Shown here piece after piece: positions 3,027 to 14,031 of a stretch of 40,713 bases of DNA; position 1 is the stretch's first letter; each line of letters opens with the position of its first letter. Source of the stretch: a virus (taxonomy: Duplodnaviria > Heunggongvirae > Uroviricota > Caudoviricetes); IMG/VR virus record IMGVR_UViG_2671180360_000017. The stretch is one strand, 5' to 3'. The notes under the pieces were generated by a model that made no database searches, was not told the DNA's origin, and saw only the letters and a program-made list of their open reading frames with translations. A program made the translations under genes and the position numbers.

Positions 3027-4043
3027 TCACACTTCTAGCGTTGCGAGGGGGTTGAATCTCAGAGCCGTCTCAAGATGATCGGGTGCTAAATGGGCATAGC
3101 GCATAGTCATTTTTATATCGTGATGTCCGAGGATTTTTTGCAAAGCAAGGATATTTCCACCCGACATCATGAAGTGCGCCGCAAACGTATGGCGCAGAAC
3201 GTGTGTCAGTTGACCGCGAGGGAGCACGATAGACGTTTTTTCCATCACGGATAAAAATTGAAAATAGCAGTCTGTAAAGAAATTGAACCCATCAAGCGCC
3301 ATGATCTCTTCGTAAAGCTCTTTACTGATAGGGATGCTTCTGTTTTTCTTCCCCTTCGTTCTTACAAAGGTAATTCGGTATTTGGTCACTTGCGAGCGGG
3401 TAAGATTTATTGCTTCTCGCCAGCGTGCGCCTGTGCTTAGGCATATCTTGACTACCAGTGCCAGAATTGGGTCCTGACGTTTGCAATCAGCCAGCAGTTC
3501 AACAATCTGCTCATGGGTAAGCCATGCCATCTCTTTTTCTGCGATGGTGAATTTTCGCATGTTCTCCAGTGGGTTCGGATACGACCATTCGCCCAGGCGG
3601 GATAGTTCGCTAAAAACACTACTTAGATAGCTTTGCTCCAGGTTAATGGTGACCGGGCTTGCTCCTTTCTTCCATTTCTCGCTGAAGTAGATCTCACCTG
3701 TCAGGCGTTTATCTCGATAGTGGGCAAACATTTTAGAGGTTAGATCAGTTGCAAGGGGATTGCCCAGAGCGTCAACCATCAACAGCAGTTTGTCATAGAC
3801 ATGCTGCCCAGCTGTCAGAGATTTACCATGTAGTTTGAACCATAGCTCAATCACGTCTTTCAATGTCCGACGATCCACTGATTCGCCCAGCCAGGGCTTT
3901 GCTTCGGTTTCTTCCATCGTGTGACGCTCAAAAGCCAGAGCTTCGCCTTTGGTGGCGAATTGTTTACGCACACGACGTCCACTACGTCCGGCGGGGTAAC
4001 ATTCGCAAAGCCATTTTCCTGTGGTGAGTTTTCGTACTGCCAT
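3027..4043 (-). CDS. int: Tyrosine integrase (P2 Int-like)
   Basis: Tyrosine-recombinase C-terminal motifs (HVLRHTFA ... RYAHL); ORF extends to 4121 but the start at MAVRKLTTGKW (4043) gives about 338 aa, matching P2 Int length; position next to the att end. Confidence 0.85.
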   Translation of the reverse strand: MAVRKLTTGKWLCECYPAGRSGRRVRKQFATKGEALAFERHTMEETEAKPWLGESVDRRTLKDVIELWFKLHGKSLTAGQHVYDKLLLMVDALGNPLATDLTSKMFAHYRDKRLTGEIYFSEKWKKGASPVTINLEQSYLSSVFSELSRLGEWSYPNPLENMRKFTIAEKEMAWLTHEQIVELLADCKRQDPILALVVKICLSTGARWREAINLTRSQVTKYRITFVRTKGKKNRSIPISKELYEEIMALDGFNFFTDCYFQFLSVMEKTSIVLPRGQLTHVLRHTFAAHFMMSGGNILALQKILGHHDIKMTMRYAHLAPDHLETALRFNPLATLEV

Positions 4044-4229
4044 AAAAAATGCCCTCCAGTAGAGAGCATTTTTACTGTATGTATAACCAGTGTCAATGTA
4101 TGAAATCCTGCGACCATACATCTCACTGAAGCCATAATGAAGTTAGCTATTTTTTGCTATGTGAGTATGTGACTTTTGCGGTTAGCCTGCGGCTCATTGT
4201 TATATTAGGCGCAGATATAAAAGCAAAAT

Positions 4230-4421
4230 TTATCGCGAGTTTTTAGTACAGATTTTTTTTGATTTACTAATAGTTCCATCATTGCAAACGAACTTTCCAT
4301 CGGAGGTACAGTGAGAGACACCTCCCTTTTTCCCAGAACAAGGATAATTTTTAGCATAGGTAGTTAGTGGGTTTAATAACAAAGAGCATGATAAAACCAC
4401 AAAAAATACCTTACCAAGCAT
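4230..4421 (-). CDS. Small secreted cysteine-rich protein (63 aa precursor) encoded between cI and int
   Basis: Strong RBS (gggaggaa) 4 nt upstream of ATG; N-terminal hydrophobic signal-like segment then about 40 residues with 4-5 Cys; AT-rich; same strand as and immediately downstream of cI. Confidence 0.5.
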
Positions 4422-4436
4422 AGTTTCCTCCCGGTA

Positions 4437-5012
4437 TTACCTAACGTACTTAATTGTTAAACTTATAATTTTCCCAATTATTTCAACATCTTCTATCTTG
4501 CACTCGAAGGCTCTGTTTCCACCCTCGACGAAGATTCTTCCACCGGGTAAACGAGTAATGTCACGGATCGTTATTTCGCCATCAATACTTATTACCCATT
4601 TACCATCACGTATATCATCAAATTCCTTATCACAAATAAATTCAGAATTATTATCTGTGATTACAAAAAGATTCTTGAATGCCGACGGTAGAAATTCTCT
4701 ATCGAAAATATAAAAACCGTCTTCACACAAGGCCCCATCAGATAATACATATTTAGCAACTTCCATAGTATTTGTATTACCTGAAGTTTGCTTTGAACCA
4801 TGCCCGGTTGTGAGCCAATTAAGCGAGGTGCCTGTTTCAAGGGCGCACTGGATTACCCATTCTGCTGGGAATGAGTCACGCATGTAGCGTGTGGCGAGTG
4901 TACTTTTAGAGATTCCTAAATGATCGCACAACGCCTGTCGAGTCTTGAATCCATAAGCTTCTACCATGCGCTCTATAGCGCCTCGTCCGCCTTTCTCCAA
5001 ATTCATGGTCAC
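4437..5012 (-). CDS. cI: Immunity repressor, phage 186 CI-like
   Basis: 191 aa (186 CI is about 192 aa), N-terminal HTH region, divergent from the apl/cII operon, upstream of int. Confidence 0.75.
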   Translation of the reverse strand: MTMNLEKGGRGAIERMVEAYGFKTRQALCDHLGISKSTLATRYMRDSFPAEWVIQCALETGTSLNWLTTGHGSKQTSGNTNTMEVAKYVLSDGALCEDGFYIFDREFLPSAFKNLFVITDNNSEFICDKEFDDIRDGKWVISIDGEITIRDITRLPGGRIFVEGGNRAFECKIEDVEIIGKIISLTIKYVR

Positions 5013-6936: not shown

Positions 6937-7790
6937 GCACCATCCTGAAATGGGCGGGTAATAAAACCGCCATTATGTCCGAACTGAAAAAATACCTTCC
7001 TGCTGGCCCGCGACTGGTTGAACCTTTCGCGGGTTCTTGTGCTGTGATGATGGCGACGGATTACCCCAGCTATCTGGTTGCGGATATTAATCCTGATTTA
7101 ATCAACCTCTATAAAAAGATTGCCGCTGATTGCGAAGCGTTTATATCTCGTGCCAAAGTTTTATTTGAGGAAGCAAACAGTGAGCTGGCTTATTACAACA
7201 TAAGACAGGAGTTTAATTACTCAACTGAAATTACTGATTTCATGAAAGCGGTATATTTCCTGTATCTCAATCGTCACGGTTACCGTGGTTTATGTCGCTA
7301 TAACAAGAGCGGGCATTTCAACATTCCCTACGGTAATTATAAAAATCCGTATTTCCCTGAAAAAGAAATTCGCGCATTTGCAGAAAAGGCCCAGCGAGCA
7401 ACGTTTATCTGCGCCAGCTTTGATGAAACGCTGGCGATGTTGAAGGCGGGGGATGTGGTGTATTGCGATCCGCCGTATGACGGTACGTTTTCCGGCTATC
7501 ACACTGACGGCTTCACTGAAGATGACCAGTATCACCTGGCATCTGTTCTTGAACATCGGTCATCAGAAGGACATCCGGTCATTGTTTCTAACAGTGACAC
7601 ATCCCTGATCCGTTCGCTGTATCGCAATTTTACTCACCACTACATCAAGGCAAAACGCAGCATCGGTGTGGCAGCTGGCGAGGGTAAATCAGCAACAGAA
7701 ATCATTGCTGTTTCCGGGCCGCGCTGCTGGGTGGGATTTGATTATTCGCGTGGCGTGGATAGTTCTGCCGTGTACGGAGTACGTGCATGA
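6933..7790 (+). CDS. dam: DNA adenine methyltransferase (Dam-like, orphan)
   Basis: N-terminal KWAGNK S-adenosylmethionine-binding motif and DPPY catalytic motif; start taken at [11 protein letters not shown] (6933); no adjacent restriction endonuclease gene. Confidence 0.8.
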
Positions 7791-10201
7791 GTCATGCCGA
7801 TATGAACAACTGCTGCGGCTTTAACGAAGCTGCCGCATCGTTCTCATGGAACAGCCCGAAAAAGGCCATTAACCCTTATCTGGACCCGGTGGAAGTTGCG
7901 CCGGTTTCTACGCTTTCAAACCTGATCACTCTGTACGCTGCCGATAACGAGCAGGAACAGCTGCGCCGTGAGGCGCTGAGTGATCAGGTCTGGGAGCGTT
8001 ATTTCTTTAATGAATCCCGTGATCCTGTCCAGCGCGAAATGGAACAGGATAAGCTCATTAGTCGGGCAAAGCTGGCGCATGAGCAGCAGCGTTTTAATCC
8101 GGATATGGTCATTCTGGCGGACGTCAACGCCCAGCCTTCCCATATCAGCAAGCCGCTGATGCAACGTATTGAATACTTCAGCAGCCTGGGCAGGCCAAAG
8201 GCTTATTCCCGCTATTTACGTGAGACGATTAAGCCATGTTTGGAACGACTGGAGCATGTACGCGACAGTCAGCTATCTGCATCTTTTCGCTTTATGGCAA
8301 GCCATGAAGGGCTGGACGGCCTGCTGATCCTGCCTGAAATGAGTCAGGATCAGGTGAAACGCCTGTCCACCTTGGTAGCTGCGCATATGAGTATGTGCCT
8401 TGATGCCGCTTGTGGCGATTTGTATGCCACCGATGACGTTAAGCCAGAAGAAATCCGCAATACATGGGAAAGGGTGGCAGCGGAAACCCTGCGTCTGGAT
8501 GTCATCCCGCCTGCGTTTGAGCAACTCCGTCGGAAAAGAAACCGCCGTAAACCCGTGCCCTATGAACTCATTCCGGGTTCGCTGGCGCGTATGTTGTGCG
8601 CCGACTGGTGGTATCGGAAATTATGGAAGATGCGTTGCGAATGGCGGGAAGAGCAGTTGCGTGCAGTCTGCCTTGTCAGCAAAAAAGCATCTCCTTATGT
8701 CAGCTATGAAGCCGTGATGCATAAACGTGAGCAGCGCCGTAAGTCGCTGGAGTTTTTCCGTTCTCATGAACTGGTGAACGAAGACGGCGACACGCTGGAC
8801 ATGGAGGATGTGGTAAACGCCAGCAGCAGCAACCCAGCGCATCGCCGCAATGAGATGATGGCCTGTGTTAAAGGTCTGGAGCTTATCGCGGAAATGCGCG
8901 GTGACTGCGCCGTTTTCTACACCATCACCTGTCCGTCACGTTTCCATTCCACGCTAAACAACGGCAGGCCCAACCCAACCTGGACAAATGCGACGGTAAG
9001 ACAAAGCAGTGATTATCTGGTCGGCATGTTTGCTGCATTTCGTAAGGCGATGCACAAAGCCGGATTGCGGTGGTATGGCGTGCGGGTGGCTGAGCCGCAT
9101 CATGACGGTACAGTTCACTGGCACCTGTTGTGTTTTATGCGCAAAAAAGACCGCCGCACCATCACTGCATTACTGCGTAAGTTTGCCATCCGTGAAGACC
9201 GCGAGGAGCTGGGCAATAACACTGGGCCGCGCTTTAAGTCTGAGTTGATTAACCCGCGCAAAGGTACGCCAACAAGCTACATCGCGAAATACATCAGTAA
9301 GAACATTGACGGGCGTGGTCTGGCTGGCGAGATCAGCAAGGAAACGGGGAAATCCCTGCGTGATAATGCTGAATACGTTAATGCCTGGGCGTCTCTGCAT
9401 CGTGTTCAGCAATTCCGCTTCTTTGGCATTCCGGGGCGTCAGGCTTACCGTGAACTGCGATTGCTGGCTGGTCAGGCGGCAAGGCAACAGGGGGACAAAA
9501 AAGCAGGTGCGCCGGTACTGGATAACCCGCGCCTTGATGCCATTCTGGCTGCTGCTGATGCTGGTTGTTTTGCCACCTACATCATGAAGCAGGGTGGCGT
9601 ACTGGTTCCCCGCAAATATCACCTCATCAGAACTGCTTATGAAATCAACGAAGAGCCGACCGCCTATGGCGATCACGGCATTCGTATTTATGGCATCTGG
9701 TCACCTATTGCAGAGGGCAAGATCTGCACTCATGCCGTGAAGTGGAAAATGGTTCGTAAGGCCGTTGACGTTCAGGAGGCGGCAGCCGACCAGGGCGCTT
9801 GCGCCCCTTGGACTCGTGGCAATAACTGTCCCCTTGCTGAAAATTTGAACCAACAAGGGAAAGACAAATCAGCTGATGGGGATACCAGGACGGACATTAC
9901 CCGCATGGATGACAAGGAGTTGCACGATTACCTGCACAGTATGAGCAAAAAAGAGCGCCGGGAACTGGCTGCAAGGTTACGCCTGGTGAAACCGAAACGG
10001 CGTAAAGACTACAAACAGCGAATTACAGACCATCAGCGACAGCAGCTCGTCTATGAACTGAAGTCCAGAGGATTTGATGGCAGCGAGAAAGAGGTCGATT
10101 TACTCCTTCGCGGCGGCAGTATTCCGTCAGGAGCAGGCCTGCGTATCTTCTATCGGAACCAGCGTTTGCAGGAAGATGATAAGTGGCGAAACCTGTATTA
10201 A
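7787..10201 (+). CDS. A: Replication initiation protein gpA (rolling-circle nickase)
   Basis: 804 aa ORF at the P2 gene A position; tyrosine-containing motif [12 protein letters not shown]; overlaps the dam stop. Confidence 0.85.
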
Positions 10202-10293
10202 TTACGCGGGTTAACAATTCGTGCTCTTAATAATACCAGGCATATCAGGCTGATGAACGTAAAAAAACGTTTTACATCAGTAAGATTATTATA

Positions 10294-10313
10294 TACTGTA
10301 AATATAAACAGTG
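10294..10313. promoter_or_regulatory. LexA (SOS) box
   Basis: TACTGTAAATATAAACAGTG, a perfect CTGT-N8-ACAG consensus, about 40 bp upstream of the small ORF / dinI-like pair. Confidence 0.6.
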
Positions 10314-10354
10314 GTTATGCATACAGTATTGCTTGTGGTGTCATAGGAGGAAAG

Positions 10355-10543
10355 ATGCAGGACTATTTTTTGGAGTCTTTGAAGCTCCAGCGCATTGATT
10401 TTTTTCTTAAGCTTGTAGCGGCTAGTGAGTGTAGTGATGAAGAGAAGGGGCTGGCTTTGCAGTGGGTTTCTGAACTGACAGATGAACTCATGGCAAAAAT
10501 CAGAACCCACGAATACAACCGCTCAATGGATGTCATCAGCTGA
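10355..10543 (+). CDS. Small SOS-controlled protein (62 aa), possible Tum-like antirepressor
   Basis: ATG preceded by an aggagg RBS, directly downstream of the LexA box; function inferred only from position (186 tum is LexA-controlled). Confidence 0.45.
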   Translation: MQDYFLESLKLQRIDFFLKLVAASECSDEEKGLALQWVSELTDELMAKIRTHEYNRSMDVIS

Positions 10544-10553
10544 GGTGACTTTT

Positions 10554-10787
10554 ATGCGCATTGAAATAATGATCGATAAAGAGCAGAAGATTAGCCAGTC
10601 TACCCTGGATGCCCTTGAATCCGAGCTTTACCGCAATCTGCGCCCCCTGTATCCCAAAACGGTAATTCGTATCCGCAAAGGTAGCTCTAACGGTGTGGAA
10701 CTGACCGGACTGCAACTGGACGAAGAAAGAAAACAAGTGCTGAAAATTATGCAGAAGGTGTGGGAAGACGACTGCTGGCTGCATTGA
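10554..10787 (+). CDS. DinI-family protein
   Basis: 77 aa beginning MRIEIMIDK and ending WEDDCWLH, closely resembling E. coli DinI; gaggtg RBS. Confidence 0.75.
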   Translation: MRIEIMIDKEQKISQSTLDALESELYRNLRPLYPKTVIRIRKGSSNGVELTGLQLDEERKQVLKIMQKVWEDDCWLH

Positions 10788-10923
10788 TAGGTTTCGTTTG
10801 TAATGAGTCATGTTTTTTGAGTCCGATAGTAGACAGCTAGAGGGATAAATGATTAATAGATAGATTAAACATAGTGATGGGCGTAAAATCGCGCGCATTT
10901 TATTGGCAACGGATCTGAACTCA

Positions 10924-11817
10924 ATGGCGGATAAGACTCAATCAGTAAGTATTGTGTATCAAGGCAAAGCTCTCGACGATCATAAGATGGATATTCTTTC
11001 GTTTGCGAAAAGTTTGCAGGGGCTAGGTGAGGCTATCTACTCTGCAAATGAGATTGTAAACGGAGGGCGAGACATTGAAGTTAACGTTGACGCTGAATTG
11101 ATAGCCGGTTCCTTTGGGTTTGATATTGAGGTTGTACAACATCTAGCTAATGCTAAAGATGTTGTACAAATTTTAGGTTTGTCAGCCATTCCTTTAGCCG
11201 TTGGCGGTGCTACAGTTTTAGAGGTTCTCAAGAAGCTTAACGGGCGTAAGATCGACATAGTCGAGAAAGCTAACGGTAGTGACAAAGTTAAGCTGAAAGT
11301 CGATGGTGAAGAGATTGTTTGCTCTGAAGATGTCGAAAAAATCGTTAATGCCCCAGAGATTCGTAAGGCTGTTGACGCGTTTGTCAGACAGCCTCTGTTA
11401 CAAGATGGTATCGACAATTTTGTGGTAAAAAAATCGCGCACCTCTAAGAAAGAAATCCTCAAAATTCATAAAGATGAGGCAGAAGAGTTTAAGTCGCCAA
11501 AAGTTCTCTTTGAAACCAAAGAAGAAGTTGACGAATTTGAAACAACCGTGACATTCGTTTCGGCGCATACTGACAAAAAAAGTGGCTGGCGTGTTGAGTT
11601 TGGCGGTGAAAAGCGCAATGTCAGAATGGAAGATAATGAGTTCATCAAGCTTGTTACTGGACCAGACGCCCCCAAAATTTTTGGCGAATTGTTTGCTGTG
11701 AAGATGAAGAAAATTGTGAAAGATTCCGGTGGCCAGGTAGACGAAAAGTTATCGATCATCAAAGTGGGTCGACACTTTGCCGCCAAAGATAGAAAAATAA
11801 AACCTGATGCGGATTAA
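10924..11817 (+). CDS. Hypothetical soluble protein (297 aa from ATG 10924; 304 aa if the TTG at 10903 is used), first gene of the AT-rich cargo operon
   Basis: Long uninterrupted ORF in AT-rich DNA between dinI-like gene and the cos region; highly charged K/E/D-rich; no recognisable motif. Confidence 0.6.
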   Translation: MADKTQSVSIVYQGKALDDHKMDILSFAKSLQGLGEAIYSANEIVNGGRDIEVNVDAELIAGSFGFDIEVVQHLANAKDVVQILGLSAIPLAVGGATVLEVLKKLNGRKIDIVEKANGSDKVKLKVDGEEIVCSEDVEKIVNAPEIRKAVDAFVRQPLLQDGIDNFVVKKSRTSKKEILKIHKDEAEEFKSPKVLFETKEEVDEFETTVTFVSAHTDKKSGWRVEFGGEKRNVRMEDNEFIKLVTGPDAPKIFGELFAVKMKKIVKDSGGQVDEKLSIIKVGRHFAAKDRKIKPDAD

Positions 11818-11819
11818 AA

Positions 11820-12083
11820 ATGTCTATAGATATTAGTGTGTTAGGATGGTTGGGGCTGCTTGTTGCAGCTCCAGCTATATTTATAGGTGCTAGAGTGGCT
11901 ATACGTAGCCTGCTCGATCGAGTTATTGTCGAAACAAAAGTTTCTATCACTTATACTGATGCAAACAAAAATGTCTATAAAACAAATATTTATATAAACA
12001 ATGATGATGAGTTAATAAAGCTCATCGATGATATAGCAGAGAAAAATAAGCGTGAGAGGAAGGAGTCAGCCTCTCATGCCTGA
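11820..12083 (+). CDS. Small membrane protein (87 aa, one N-terminal transmembrane helix)
   Basis: Starts 3 nt after the previous stop; hydrophobic segment VLGWLGLLVAAPAIFIGARVAI followed by a charged tail. Confidence 0.55.
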   Translation: MSIDISVLGWLGLLVAAPAIFIGARVAIRSLLDRVIVETKVSITYTDANKNVYKTNIYINNDDELIKLIDDIAEKNKRERKESASHA

Positions 12084-12492
12084 ACAAAAGAAAACAAGCG
12101 GTAAAGCAGTCGGTGTTACAGGTGGCGGCGGTGTAGGCCTTTTCCTAATAAAGCTGGCTAGCTTCATTACAGATCCAACATGGAAAGACCTTTACATTGC
12201 TTCAATACCGATGGTGTCAATTCTTTTAAGCGAAGTTTTTACTTTTGCATGGACGATTTATGCTGTTGATCCGCAAGAAATCAAACTGAAAAGGCGGTTG
12301 AAGGCTCTGAAGAAGCAAGCCGAAGCAGTTTTAAATGCACCATCGTCCCCTGTTTCTCCAGAAATGCGAGAGAAAGCGCAGGCTCGTTACGACGTGATCT
12401 GTGGAATTGAAATGGGAATTTACCCCCTCTCAATTGTAAATACGCTAGATGGAAAAGTATCCCCCACAGCGCAAACGCCGGACGTTAAATAG
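12076..12492 (+). CDS. Small membrane protein (138 aa, two predicted transmembrane helices)
   Basis: aggaagga RBS upstream of ATG 12076, overlaps the previous gene end; hydrophobic segments GVGLFLIKLASFI and IASIPMVSILLSEVFTFAWTIYAV. Confidence 0.55.
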   Translation: MPEQKKTSGKAVGVTGGGGVGLFLIKLASFITDPTWKDLYIASIPMVSILLSEVFTFAWTIYAVDPQEIKLKRRLKALKKQAEAVLNAPSSPVSPEMREKAQARYDVICGIEMGIYPLSIVNTLDGKVSPTAQTPDVK

Positions 12493-12553
12493 CAGTTTCT
12501 ACTTTGCATGACTATGCTGCATGAAATCGCATGATCGTTTGAGGATCGTTTTT

Positions 12554-12586
12554 GCAAAAGCCCGCCAGAACTGGCGGGCTTTTGCG
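12554..12586. terminator. Rho-independent terminator (possibly bidirectional) closing the three-gene cargo operon
   Basis: Perfect hairpin aaaagcccgccag / ctggcgggctttt flanked by A/T runs. Confidence 0.6.
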
Positions 12587-12628
12587 TAGAGCATGCATCT
12601 GCATGAAAACCACTACATAAAGCGGGCA

Positions 12629-12647
12629 GGCGTGGCGGGGATACGAG
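12629..12647. other. Candidate cos site (19 nt cohesive-end sequence)
   Basis: GGCGTGGCGGGGATACGAG resembles the P2/186 cohesive end as I remember it (GGCGAGGCGGGGAAAGCAC / GGCGTGGCGGGGAAAGCAT); lies on the portal side of gene A as in P2. Confidence 0.3.
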
Positions 12648-12762
12648 CGCGCGCTGGTTAATTTATATGAGAACAATCTCATATAAATATTCGAGACAAG
12701 TTGCAAAAAAACGCGGAGCATTATATGTTTAGTAGCAAATTCTGAACGTTGAGAATATTAAA

Positions 12763-14031
12763 ATGGAAATTTTTGATACGAATGATATCTTTGGGCTCTC
12801 AAGAGATTTGCCACTTAATTACATTGAAAGACCTGATGTTGATTTCAAACTTAAACAGGAATTACAAGCAAAGAAACATATTGTTATTTACGGCAGTTCA
12901 AAGCAGGGTAAGACTTGCGTAAGAAAACACTGTATTAATTCTGATGATTATATTTTGGTGCAGTGTTCGAATCGTTCTGATGTATCTGAATTGAATGCAA
13001 GTATTTTAAAAAGAGCTGGATTCGAAATAACTCAGTCTACCAAGAAAGGTATTACGGGGAAAAATAAAATAATCGCATCAATAAAAACTTCTATTTTGGG
13101 TTTTGTGGCGAGTGCCGGAGGCGAGATCGAAGATACGAAATCTCATGAACAAGTAACCGCGCCTTTAGAAATTGATGTTGATGATGTTAATGATGTTATA
13201 GCGGCTTTAAAATCTATAAATTTCAAGAAGATTATCGTTCTTGAGGATTTTCATTATATGCCTTTCGAAACTCAAAGAGATTTTTCGATCGCATTAAAAG
13301 CCTTTCATGAAACATCAAGCATTATTTTTGTAATTGTTGGAGTTTGGCTAGAAGATAATCGGCTCATTGTTTACAATGGTGACTTAACTGGCAGGATTAT
13401 TTCTGTTAACGCAGACAAATGGCAAGATTCTGAACTGGAGATGGCAATTGATAAAGGAGGTTTACTCCTTAACATTGATTTTGATCCAACTTTCAAAGCA
13501 GATGTAGTAACACACTGTCTCAATAGTATTTATTTAGTGCAAGAAGCATGTAGGCGTGCGTGTATTGAATGCGGAATATCAGAGACTCAGCAAACAAAAA
13601 GAACTATTGGAGCTGGTTTGGATGGAAAGGATATCATTGCAAAAATTGTTAATGACCAATCGGCTCGTTACAATTCTTTCCTTATTAATTTTTCAGATGG
13701 ATTTCAAGATACTGAACTTCAAATGCATAAATGGATTTTATATCCTGTCCTTTCATCAACCATTAGTGAACTTGAATTAGGTTTGAAATTTAAAGATATA
13801 AGGGCAATATTACAAAGTGTACATCCAAGAGGGGAGAAGTTAAACCTGGGTAATGTTACTCAGTCGTTACAATCAACGGCGTCTTTGCAAATAAAGAAAA
13901 ATATAATGCCTATTATTTTGGATTATGACCAAACAAATAGGAAACTGAATGTTGTTGATAAAGGCTTCCTAATATGGTTGCAACATCAAGATATCAAAGA
14001 TCTAAAGGATGATTTGGAGTTGCCAAATTAA
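12763..14031 (+). CDS. P-loop NTPase of unassigned family (422 aa), orphan cargo gene
   Basis: Walker A GSSKQGKT and Walker B-like IIVLEDFH; AT-rich; convergent with Q and separated from it by an inverted repeat. Confidence 0.7.
   Translation: MEIFDTNDIFGLSRDLPLNYIERPDVDFKLKQELQAKKHIVIYGSSKQGKTCVRKHCINSDDYILVQCSNRSDVSELNASILKRAGFEITQSTKKGITGKNKIIASIKTSILGFVASAGGEIEDTKSHEQVTAPLEIDVDDVNDVIAALKSINFKKIIVLEDFHYMPFETQRDFSIALKAFHETSSIIFVIVGVWLEDNRLIVYNGDLTGRIISVNADKWQDSELEMAIDKGGLLLNIDFDPTFKADVVTHCLNSIYLVQEACRRACIECGISETQQTKRTIGAGLDGKDIIAKIVNDQSARYNSFLINFSDGFQDTELQMHKWILYPVLSSTISELELGLKFKDIRAILQSVHPRGEKLNLGNVTQSLQSTASLQIKKNIMPIILDYDQTNRKLNVVDKGFLIWLQHQDIKDLKDDLELPN

Follow-up and report, generated by a model that had tools for sequence, protein, structure and literature searches.

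Evidence for a split tum operon preceded by two overlapping SOS boxes in a P2-like prophage of Escherichia coli

In phage 186, the LexA-controlled gene tum encodes the antirepressor that triggers prophage induction: Tum binds the immunity repressor CI and blocks its binding to the operators, as established by biochemistry (Shearwin et al. 1998, as described in PMC3121763). In Fels-2 and PSP3, tum comes in two pieces, of which the upstream gene of PSP3 is an antirepressor (PMC3121763), and the PSP3 record names the two genes tumA ("similar to 5' end 186 tum; UV induction of prophage") and tumB. LexA-controlled antirepressor operons have also been described in Gifsy-1, Gifsy-2 and Fels-1 (gfoA, gftA, fsoA) and in N15 (AntC) (PMC3121763). 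Genetic evidence is available for DuoHS, a prophage of E. coli HS: in-frame deletion of its tum gene (ECHS_RS04495) led to loss of induction by mitomycin C, induction was likewise abolished in a lexA(Ind-) background, and an SOS reporter was still active in the tum mutant (PMC12055606, Nat Microbiol 2025).

The DNA analyzed here (hereafter the window; 40,713 nucleotides, IMG/VR record IMGVR_UViG_2671180360_000017) contains a complete P2-like prophage with a 186-type switch, and the host is E. coli, to whose chromosome the left flank (hchA, porin) is 99.9% identical. Components of the switch in the window are CI, CII (family CP76) adjoining CI, a Dam methylase, and replication protein A (gpA), the gene for which (7787-10201) lies directly before tumA. 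The resulting order, gpA followed by tumA and then dinI, is equal to that in 186, PSP3, Fels-2, and DuoHS. Fels-2, RE2010, and many P2-like phages of Klebsiella and E. coli share 97-99% identity with the region 10150-10788; the similarity to relatives breaks off exactly at the dinI stop (10788) and returns at 12505. We are confident in reading 10294-10787 as the SOS operon of a P2-like prophage of the Fels-2/186 type, with tum split into tumA and tumB.

The split tum operon of Fels-2/186-type phages is an already known feature, since genetic tests of this gene have been published for a nearly identical prophage. DuoHS matches the window at 61 of 62 residues of TumA and 186 of 189 residues of CI (98%), with the same operator and an identical int promoter. 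The initial annotation had proposed an SOS-inducible module, of 186 type rather than P2 type, and this reading is borne out by the dependence of DuoHS induction on tum and on LexA cleavage (PMC12055606), by the 186-type CI and CII, by a promoter and box that align with p95, the tum promoter of 186, and by the 40% identity of the DinI-like open reading frame (ORF) to residues 71-145 of 186 Tum. The module was found in 1,125 of 5,426 complete E. coli genomes (21%), where its genes are annotated as "hypothetical protein" and "DinI-like family protein". Elsewhere (RefSeq, UniRef, phage records) TumA is labeled either as "hypothetical protein" or, wrongly, as "levan regulatory (domain) protein", and many gene callers lengthen tumA to 87-101 aa, such that it runs across its own promoter.

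The tum promoter has a -35 hexamer, TTTACA, at 10271-10276 (plus strand), which aligns with the annotated -35 of 186 p95 (TTCACA) and is unchanged in 59 distinct relatives. The putative -10 hexamer, TACTGT at 10294-10299 (plus strand), follows 17 nt past the -35 and doubles as the left arm of the first SOS box. This -10 is assigned by homology to p95 only, where an identical hexamer stands in identical relation to the LexA site. TACTGT matches TATAAT at just three of six positions, making it a weak -10, and a generic promoter scan consequently misses the tum promoter.

The first, distal SOS box, TACTGTAAATATAAACAGTG, occupies 10294-10313 on the plus strand, with its core, CTGT-N8-ACAG, at 10296-10311; it ends 41 nt before the tumA ATG. 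As in other tum and tumA loci, the LexA box overlaps the promoter, here by coinciding with the -10, and it has the form of an enterobacterial LexA box, a CTGT-N8-ACAG palindrome with an AT-rich center. The initial annotation had called this box perfect, which holds for the CTGT/ACAG core (8 of 8 positions) but not for the full 20-mer, which agrees with the palindromic LexA consensus TACTGTATATATATACAGTA at only 17 of 20 positions. The core occurs once in the window against 0.40 occurrences expected, and was present at least once in 36 of 100 shuffles; on its own, then, it is not significant. A 20-mer with no more than three mismatches, in contrast, occurs once in the window and in none of 100 shuffles. 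Each of the eight relatives examined has the box at the equivalent place, 186, PSP3, and ESSI-2 with their diverged flanks among them, and it is nearly invariant over 78 loci. Binding by LexA has indirect support from the lexA(Ind-) phenotype of DuoHS, whose operator is the same.

A second, proximal SOS box, missed in the initial annotation, lies immediately downstream: CAGTGGTTATGCATACAGTA at 10309-10328 on the plus strand, within which the 16-mer GTGGTTATGCATACAG (GTGG-N8-ACAG, 10311-10326) overlaps box 1 by one bp. Its left arm is poor (GTGG in place of CTGT), such that its occupation by a second LexA dimer is only inferred, by analogy with the double boxes of colicin operons, which bind two LexA dimers cooperatively and give very tight repression, with undetectable basal expression and delayed induction (PMC2994835). 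Box 2 was found in all Felsduovirus-type relatives and is absent from 186, PSP3, and ESSI-2. A comparison of 59 distinct promoter versions shows almost no variation in the -35, in box 1, or in the CAG of box 2 (10324-10326), and most variation at the center of box 2 (10319-10321), the pattern that would be expected if the arms matter. Further hypervariable positions in this otherwise almost invariant promoter (10327-10328, 10331, and 10333) fall just past box 2; they may reflect tuning of LexA affinity or of the 5' end of the mRNA.

Two 16-mers sharing one bp, the second with a degenerate left arm, constitute a double operator of the colicin type, and this is the arrangement found at 10296-10311 and 10311-10326. 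A 46-nt query comprising the Fels-2 operator returned matches in more than 1,200 plasmids, mostly mobilizable; two of these plasmids were inspected, and the gene that follows the match at about 40 nt encodes a klebicin-type tRNase bacteriocin in one and a colicin E1-like protein in the other. By-eye counts on the alignment with the operator of a Klebsiella ColRNAI plasmid gave 32 of 38 nt for the window and 35 of 38 for Fels-2. Positions 10292-10329 of the window are near-equal to the klebicin and colicin E1-like operators of small Col plasmids, including the non-consensus GTGGTTAT arm. This likeness may stem from common descent, by the transfer of a regulatory cassette, or from convergence. 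We encountered no description of a double tum operator in the tum and colicin papers examined.

The first gene behind this operator, tumA, encodes 62 aa at 10355-10543 on the plus strand, with its ATG at 10355 and its stop codon at 10541-10543. A ribosome-binding site (RBS), AGGAGG, is read from the sequence at 10345-10350 and is kept in relatives; the small ORF with a consensus RBS that the initial annotation reported is confirmed at exactly its coordinates. A longer, 96-aa reading from 10253 was rejected: it crosses the promoter, and relatives carry non-triplet indels there.

The initial annotation had also suggested that the 62-aa protein may be a different type of antirepressor from 186 Tum. 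That suggestion is overturned by profile comparisons, which identify the protein with the N-terminal half of Tum. BLASTP of the ORF against 186 Tum gave no alignment, and the ORF matched no family in Pfam or NCBIfam. The N-half of 186 Tum, however, matches phrog_698, the family of the window ORF itself, at 6e-6 and phrog_8554 at 3e-12; the window ORF in turn matches phrog_8554 at 2e-8 and phrog_1993, the family of PSP3 TumA, at 2e-3, and all of these cross-matches are in register. HHalign of a 28-sequence TumA family alignment against 186 Tum-N plus PSP3 TumA aligned residues 4-44 with residues 4-44 at a probability of 94.4% and an E-value of 9e-8. TumA, as judged by these profile methods at about 20% identity, is a homolog of the N-terminal (non-DinI) half of 186 Tum; the homologies of the N-half and the DinI half together make 186 Tum a fusion of tumA-like and dinI-like genes. 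The window protein is 98% identical to those of Fels-2 and DuoHS. An AlphaFold2 model of TumA (pLDDT 88.5) is a two-helix hairpin with helices at residues 2-23 and 28-61. Foldseek with this model returned generic helical hairpins only, none at E ≤ 0.001, and our search for a solved structure of the Tum N-domain found none.

The second gene, tumB or dinI-like, encodes 77 aa at 10554-10787 on the plus strand, as the initial annotation had it in placing a DinI homolog downstream. The protein belongs to the Pfam DinI family (E 4e-21; 75.4 bits against a cut-off of 24.2), and scores 41 bits against the NCBIfam equivalog for chromosomal DinI, for which the cut-off is 111; it is far enough below this cut-off to be considered a phage paralog rather than an ortholog of host DinI. 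Besides its relation to 186 Tum, it is 75% identical to PSP3 TumB. In 186, the DinI-like part of Tum can be produced separately from an internal GTG (186 record); in the window, 10 nt separate the tumA stop from the start of the dinI-like gene, which has an RBS of its own. A hairpin at 10532-10549, over the tumA stop and the dinI RBS, was considered as a translational coupler and rejected: its z-score of -1.3 is no better than that of shuffles, and it is missing in SopEPhi and in Yersinia and Klebsiella relatives.

Two adjacent ORFs could also be what is left of a fused tum gene after a frameshift, with SOS inducibility lost. The ORFs are indeed in different frames, and the DinI frame is open back to 10482, such that a single +1 shift would fuse them. 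However, both genes are under strong purifying selection (with dS reaching 1.6, dN/dS is 0.08-0.09 in tumA and 0.07-0.13 in dinI), an identical split layout recurs in hundreds of genomes and in four phage genera, each ORF has its own start and RBS, and DuoHS is inducible and requires the ORF for induction. A wrecked gene has next to no chance of being the explanation, and selection together with the conserved layout rules out a programmed frameshift or a pseudogene.

The repressor that TumA would act on is encoded at 4437-5006 on the minus strand. Pfam profiles identify it as a 186-type immunity repressor (Phage_CI_repr, PF07022, E 3e-33; Phage_CI_C, PF16452, E 9e-27), and its score against Peptidase_S24 is sub-threshold (16.7 bits against a cut-off of 23.3); this is a 186-type CI without a domain for RecA-dependent autocleavage. 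Physical binding of CI by TumA is suggested for the window by analogy with 186. The proposed order of events is as follows: in the lysogen, LexA would sit on the double operator, with box 1 over the -10 and the start site and box 2 just downstream, keeping the promoter shut. Following DNA damage, activated RecA would promote self-cleavage of LexA and tumA-tumB would be transcribed. Next, TumA would bind CI, which RecA cannot be expected to cleave, and remove it from its operators, allowing the lytic promoter to open. Co-transcribed TumB, meanwhile, would act on RecA filaments and tune the SOS signal. DinI homologs modulate RecA, and an effect of TumB on co-protease activity is the role this suggests.

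The assignment of the antirepressor role to TumA has to be weighed against a different division of labor, in which induction is really the work of TumB, either by itself or with TumA as an obligatory partner, through CI or RecA, and the 62-aa protein is an accessory or leader peptide. In the DuoHS deletion, the start codon of tumA is joined directly to its stop codon; such a deletion could be polar on the dinI-like gene, lowering its translation, and thus the genetics do not fully separate the roles of tumA and dinI. In addition, both parts of 186 Tum are on one polypeptide, of which only the full-length form inhibits CI (record notes), and in Felsduovirus-type phages the tumA and dinI-like genes are always adjacent. 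Yet ESSI-2 and ESSI2_ev015 keep a LexA-boxed tumA homolog without any dinI, the truncated DinI-like products of 186 are annotated as modulators rather than CI inhibitors, the dinI-like gene has translation signals of its own, and it is the upstream gene that was reported to be the antirepressor in PSP3 (PMC3121763). We consider TumB an improbable inducer and retain TumA as the antirepressor.

Downstream of dinI, the window carries a cargo cassette. The 1.7-kb region between the dinI stop and a conserved terminator block (10788-12504) holds, at 10903-12492 on the plus strand, a 304-aa ORF and ORFs of 87 and 146 aa; the 304-aa ORF corresponds to the PADLOC candidate PDC-S42 (E 7.8e-44). No terminator-like structure was found between dinI and the cassette. 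A Rho-independent terminator follows it at 12554-12585 on the plus strand (-27.9 kcal/mol, z -6.0), within the conserved block at 12505-12655. In related loci the site is either empty (a dinI-to-block distance of 81-82 nt, in 37 loci) or filled (0.7-3.4 kb, in about 45 loci). With inserts of more than 20 sizes, the site is a hotspot for cargo within a LexA-controlled unit. By analogy with orf97 of 186, the cargo probably shares the SOS transcript. This variable region has a second candidate defense gene between the terminator and the portal gene: a 422-aa AAA-type ORF (12763-14031) that corresponds to PADLOC candidate PDC-S59 (E 5e-72).

Such cargo raises the question of whether LexA control here is chiefly of use to the host or to the cargo itself, as a means of SOS-tuned expression of DinI and defense genes, with no part in induction. 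In its favor, DinI homologs are modulators of RecA, a candidate defense cassette lies ahead of the terminator, and orf97, in the same operon as tum, blocks 186 infection when expressed (186 record). Against it are the DuoHS genetics, the homology of TumA to the antirepressor domain of Tum, and the presence of the module at the 37 loci with an empty site. A unit devoted to host or cargo alone is very unlikely, and a part in prophage induction is the reading we prefer.

A further LexA box marks the integrase gene. The int gene (338 aa, 3027-4043, minus strand; Pfam Int_N and Phage_integrase) starts at an ATG at 4043, the same start as that given by PGAP for the DuoHS integrase. Its predicted promoter, at 4068-4096 on the minus strand, lies 24 nt upstream of the ATG with an RBS, GGAGGG (4052-4057), in between, and consists of a -35, TTGACA (4096-4091), and a -10, AAAAAT (4073-4068), separated by 17 nt; a promoter scan scored it 10 of 12. 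The spacer is exactly occupied by an SOS box at 4092-4073, CACTGGTTATACATACAGTA on the minus strand (given as TACTGTATGTATAACCAGTG for 4073-4092), which has one difference from box 2 of DuoHS and two from box 2 of the window. This box was present in every relative with the same type of int, including two with otherwise diverged upstream DNA, and absent where int abuts cI (186, Fels-2). A conserved, LexA-boxed promoter makes Int appear SOS-inducible in this lineage, and it is probably so in the window phage. In the literature searched, we found no mention of LexA control of int in P2-like phages. The gap between cI and int, where the genes abut in 186 and Fels-2, measures about 315 nt in the window (4122-4436), and its equivalent in E. 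coli HS carries an annotated hypothetical ORF of 63 aa (ECHS_RS23290).

TumA and CI differ in how much they vary. The best 80 of at least 593 IMG/VR loci all have a 100%-identical TumA. The pairing with CI was assessed in 69 loci, namely the window and those IMG/VR loci in which TumA is 98% identical or more and the match to CI is full-length; the 40 distinct CI proteins that these encode fall into at least 18 clusters. Identity to the CI of the window ranges from 66 to 100% in the N-terminal domains and from 25 to 100% in the C-terminal domains. Some CI variants are about 310 aa long and have an extra C-terminal extension (e.g., those of loci L032, L051, and L057). Among named phages, divergence of TumA follows divergence of the CI N-domain only coarsely. 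The pairing of one TumA with varied CI proteins fits a generalist antirepressor that would recognize the conserved DNA-binding domain; shared ancestry or modular recombination could also account for it.

Taken jointly, these observations would describe a multi-point LexA wiring in which tumA has a high damage threshold owing to its double operator, Int is made only on induction, the cargo is SOS-inducible, and TumA is a generalist. We advance this combined reading tentatively, as possible but somewhat less than an even prospect. None of its four parts was described in the literature searched. If it is true, co-resident Fels-2/186-type prophages would be induced together, one TumA neutralizing heteroimmune CI repressors through their N-terminal domain.

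The module sets the exit of the prophage from the chromosome after DNA damage, including damage caused by antibiotics, and the type of prophage that bears it is very common in E. coli, Klebsiella, and Salmonella. Its function is established, and the practical value of the module lies in annotation. To the paradigm of 186 it makes four additions: a double operator, a LexA-boxed int promoter, defense cargo in the SOS unit, and one TumA with many repressors. These are relevant to the threshold of induction, to cross-induction in polylysogens, and to the SOS-timed expression of defense genes.

How the locus compares with described systems can be stated for each in turn. The antirepressors GfoA, GftA, FsoA, and AntC are similar in kind, being small, LexA-repressed proteins that bind a non-cleavable repressor and are co-transcribed with a dinI homolog (PMC3121763); their target repressors, however, are of a family other than the 186-type CI. 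Colicin and klebicin operons likewise have two 16-mers with one common bp and a near-equal sequence, but their boxes lie just downstream of a separate -10, whereas in the window phage box 1 is itself the -10. The SOS operon of 186 (p95, LexA site, tum, orf97) is in the equal position, directly after gene A, and has the same promoter plan, the same type of repressor (186 CI family), the same N-terminal antirepressor and DinI-like parts, and a further gene in the operon; it differs in having a single SOS box in place of two overlapping ones, and in that Tum is one polypeptide of 146 aa with internal starts, where the window has two genes in different frames. PSP3, Fels-2 (STM2728/STM2726.1), and DuoHS (ECHS_RS04495) have the same split architecture as the window. 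Of these, PSP3 has a single box and a TumA of the 186-like subfamily phrog_1993 (14% identity in the alignment). The operator of the window is the same as in Fels-2 and DuoHS, and DuoHS differs from the window phage in the cargo after dinI and in its site of insertion in the chromosome.
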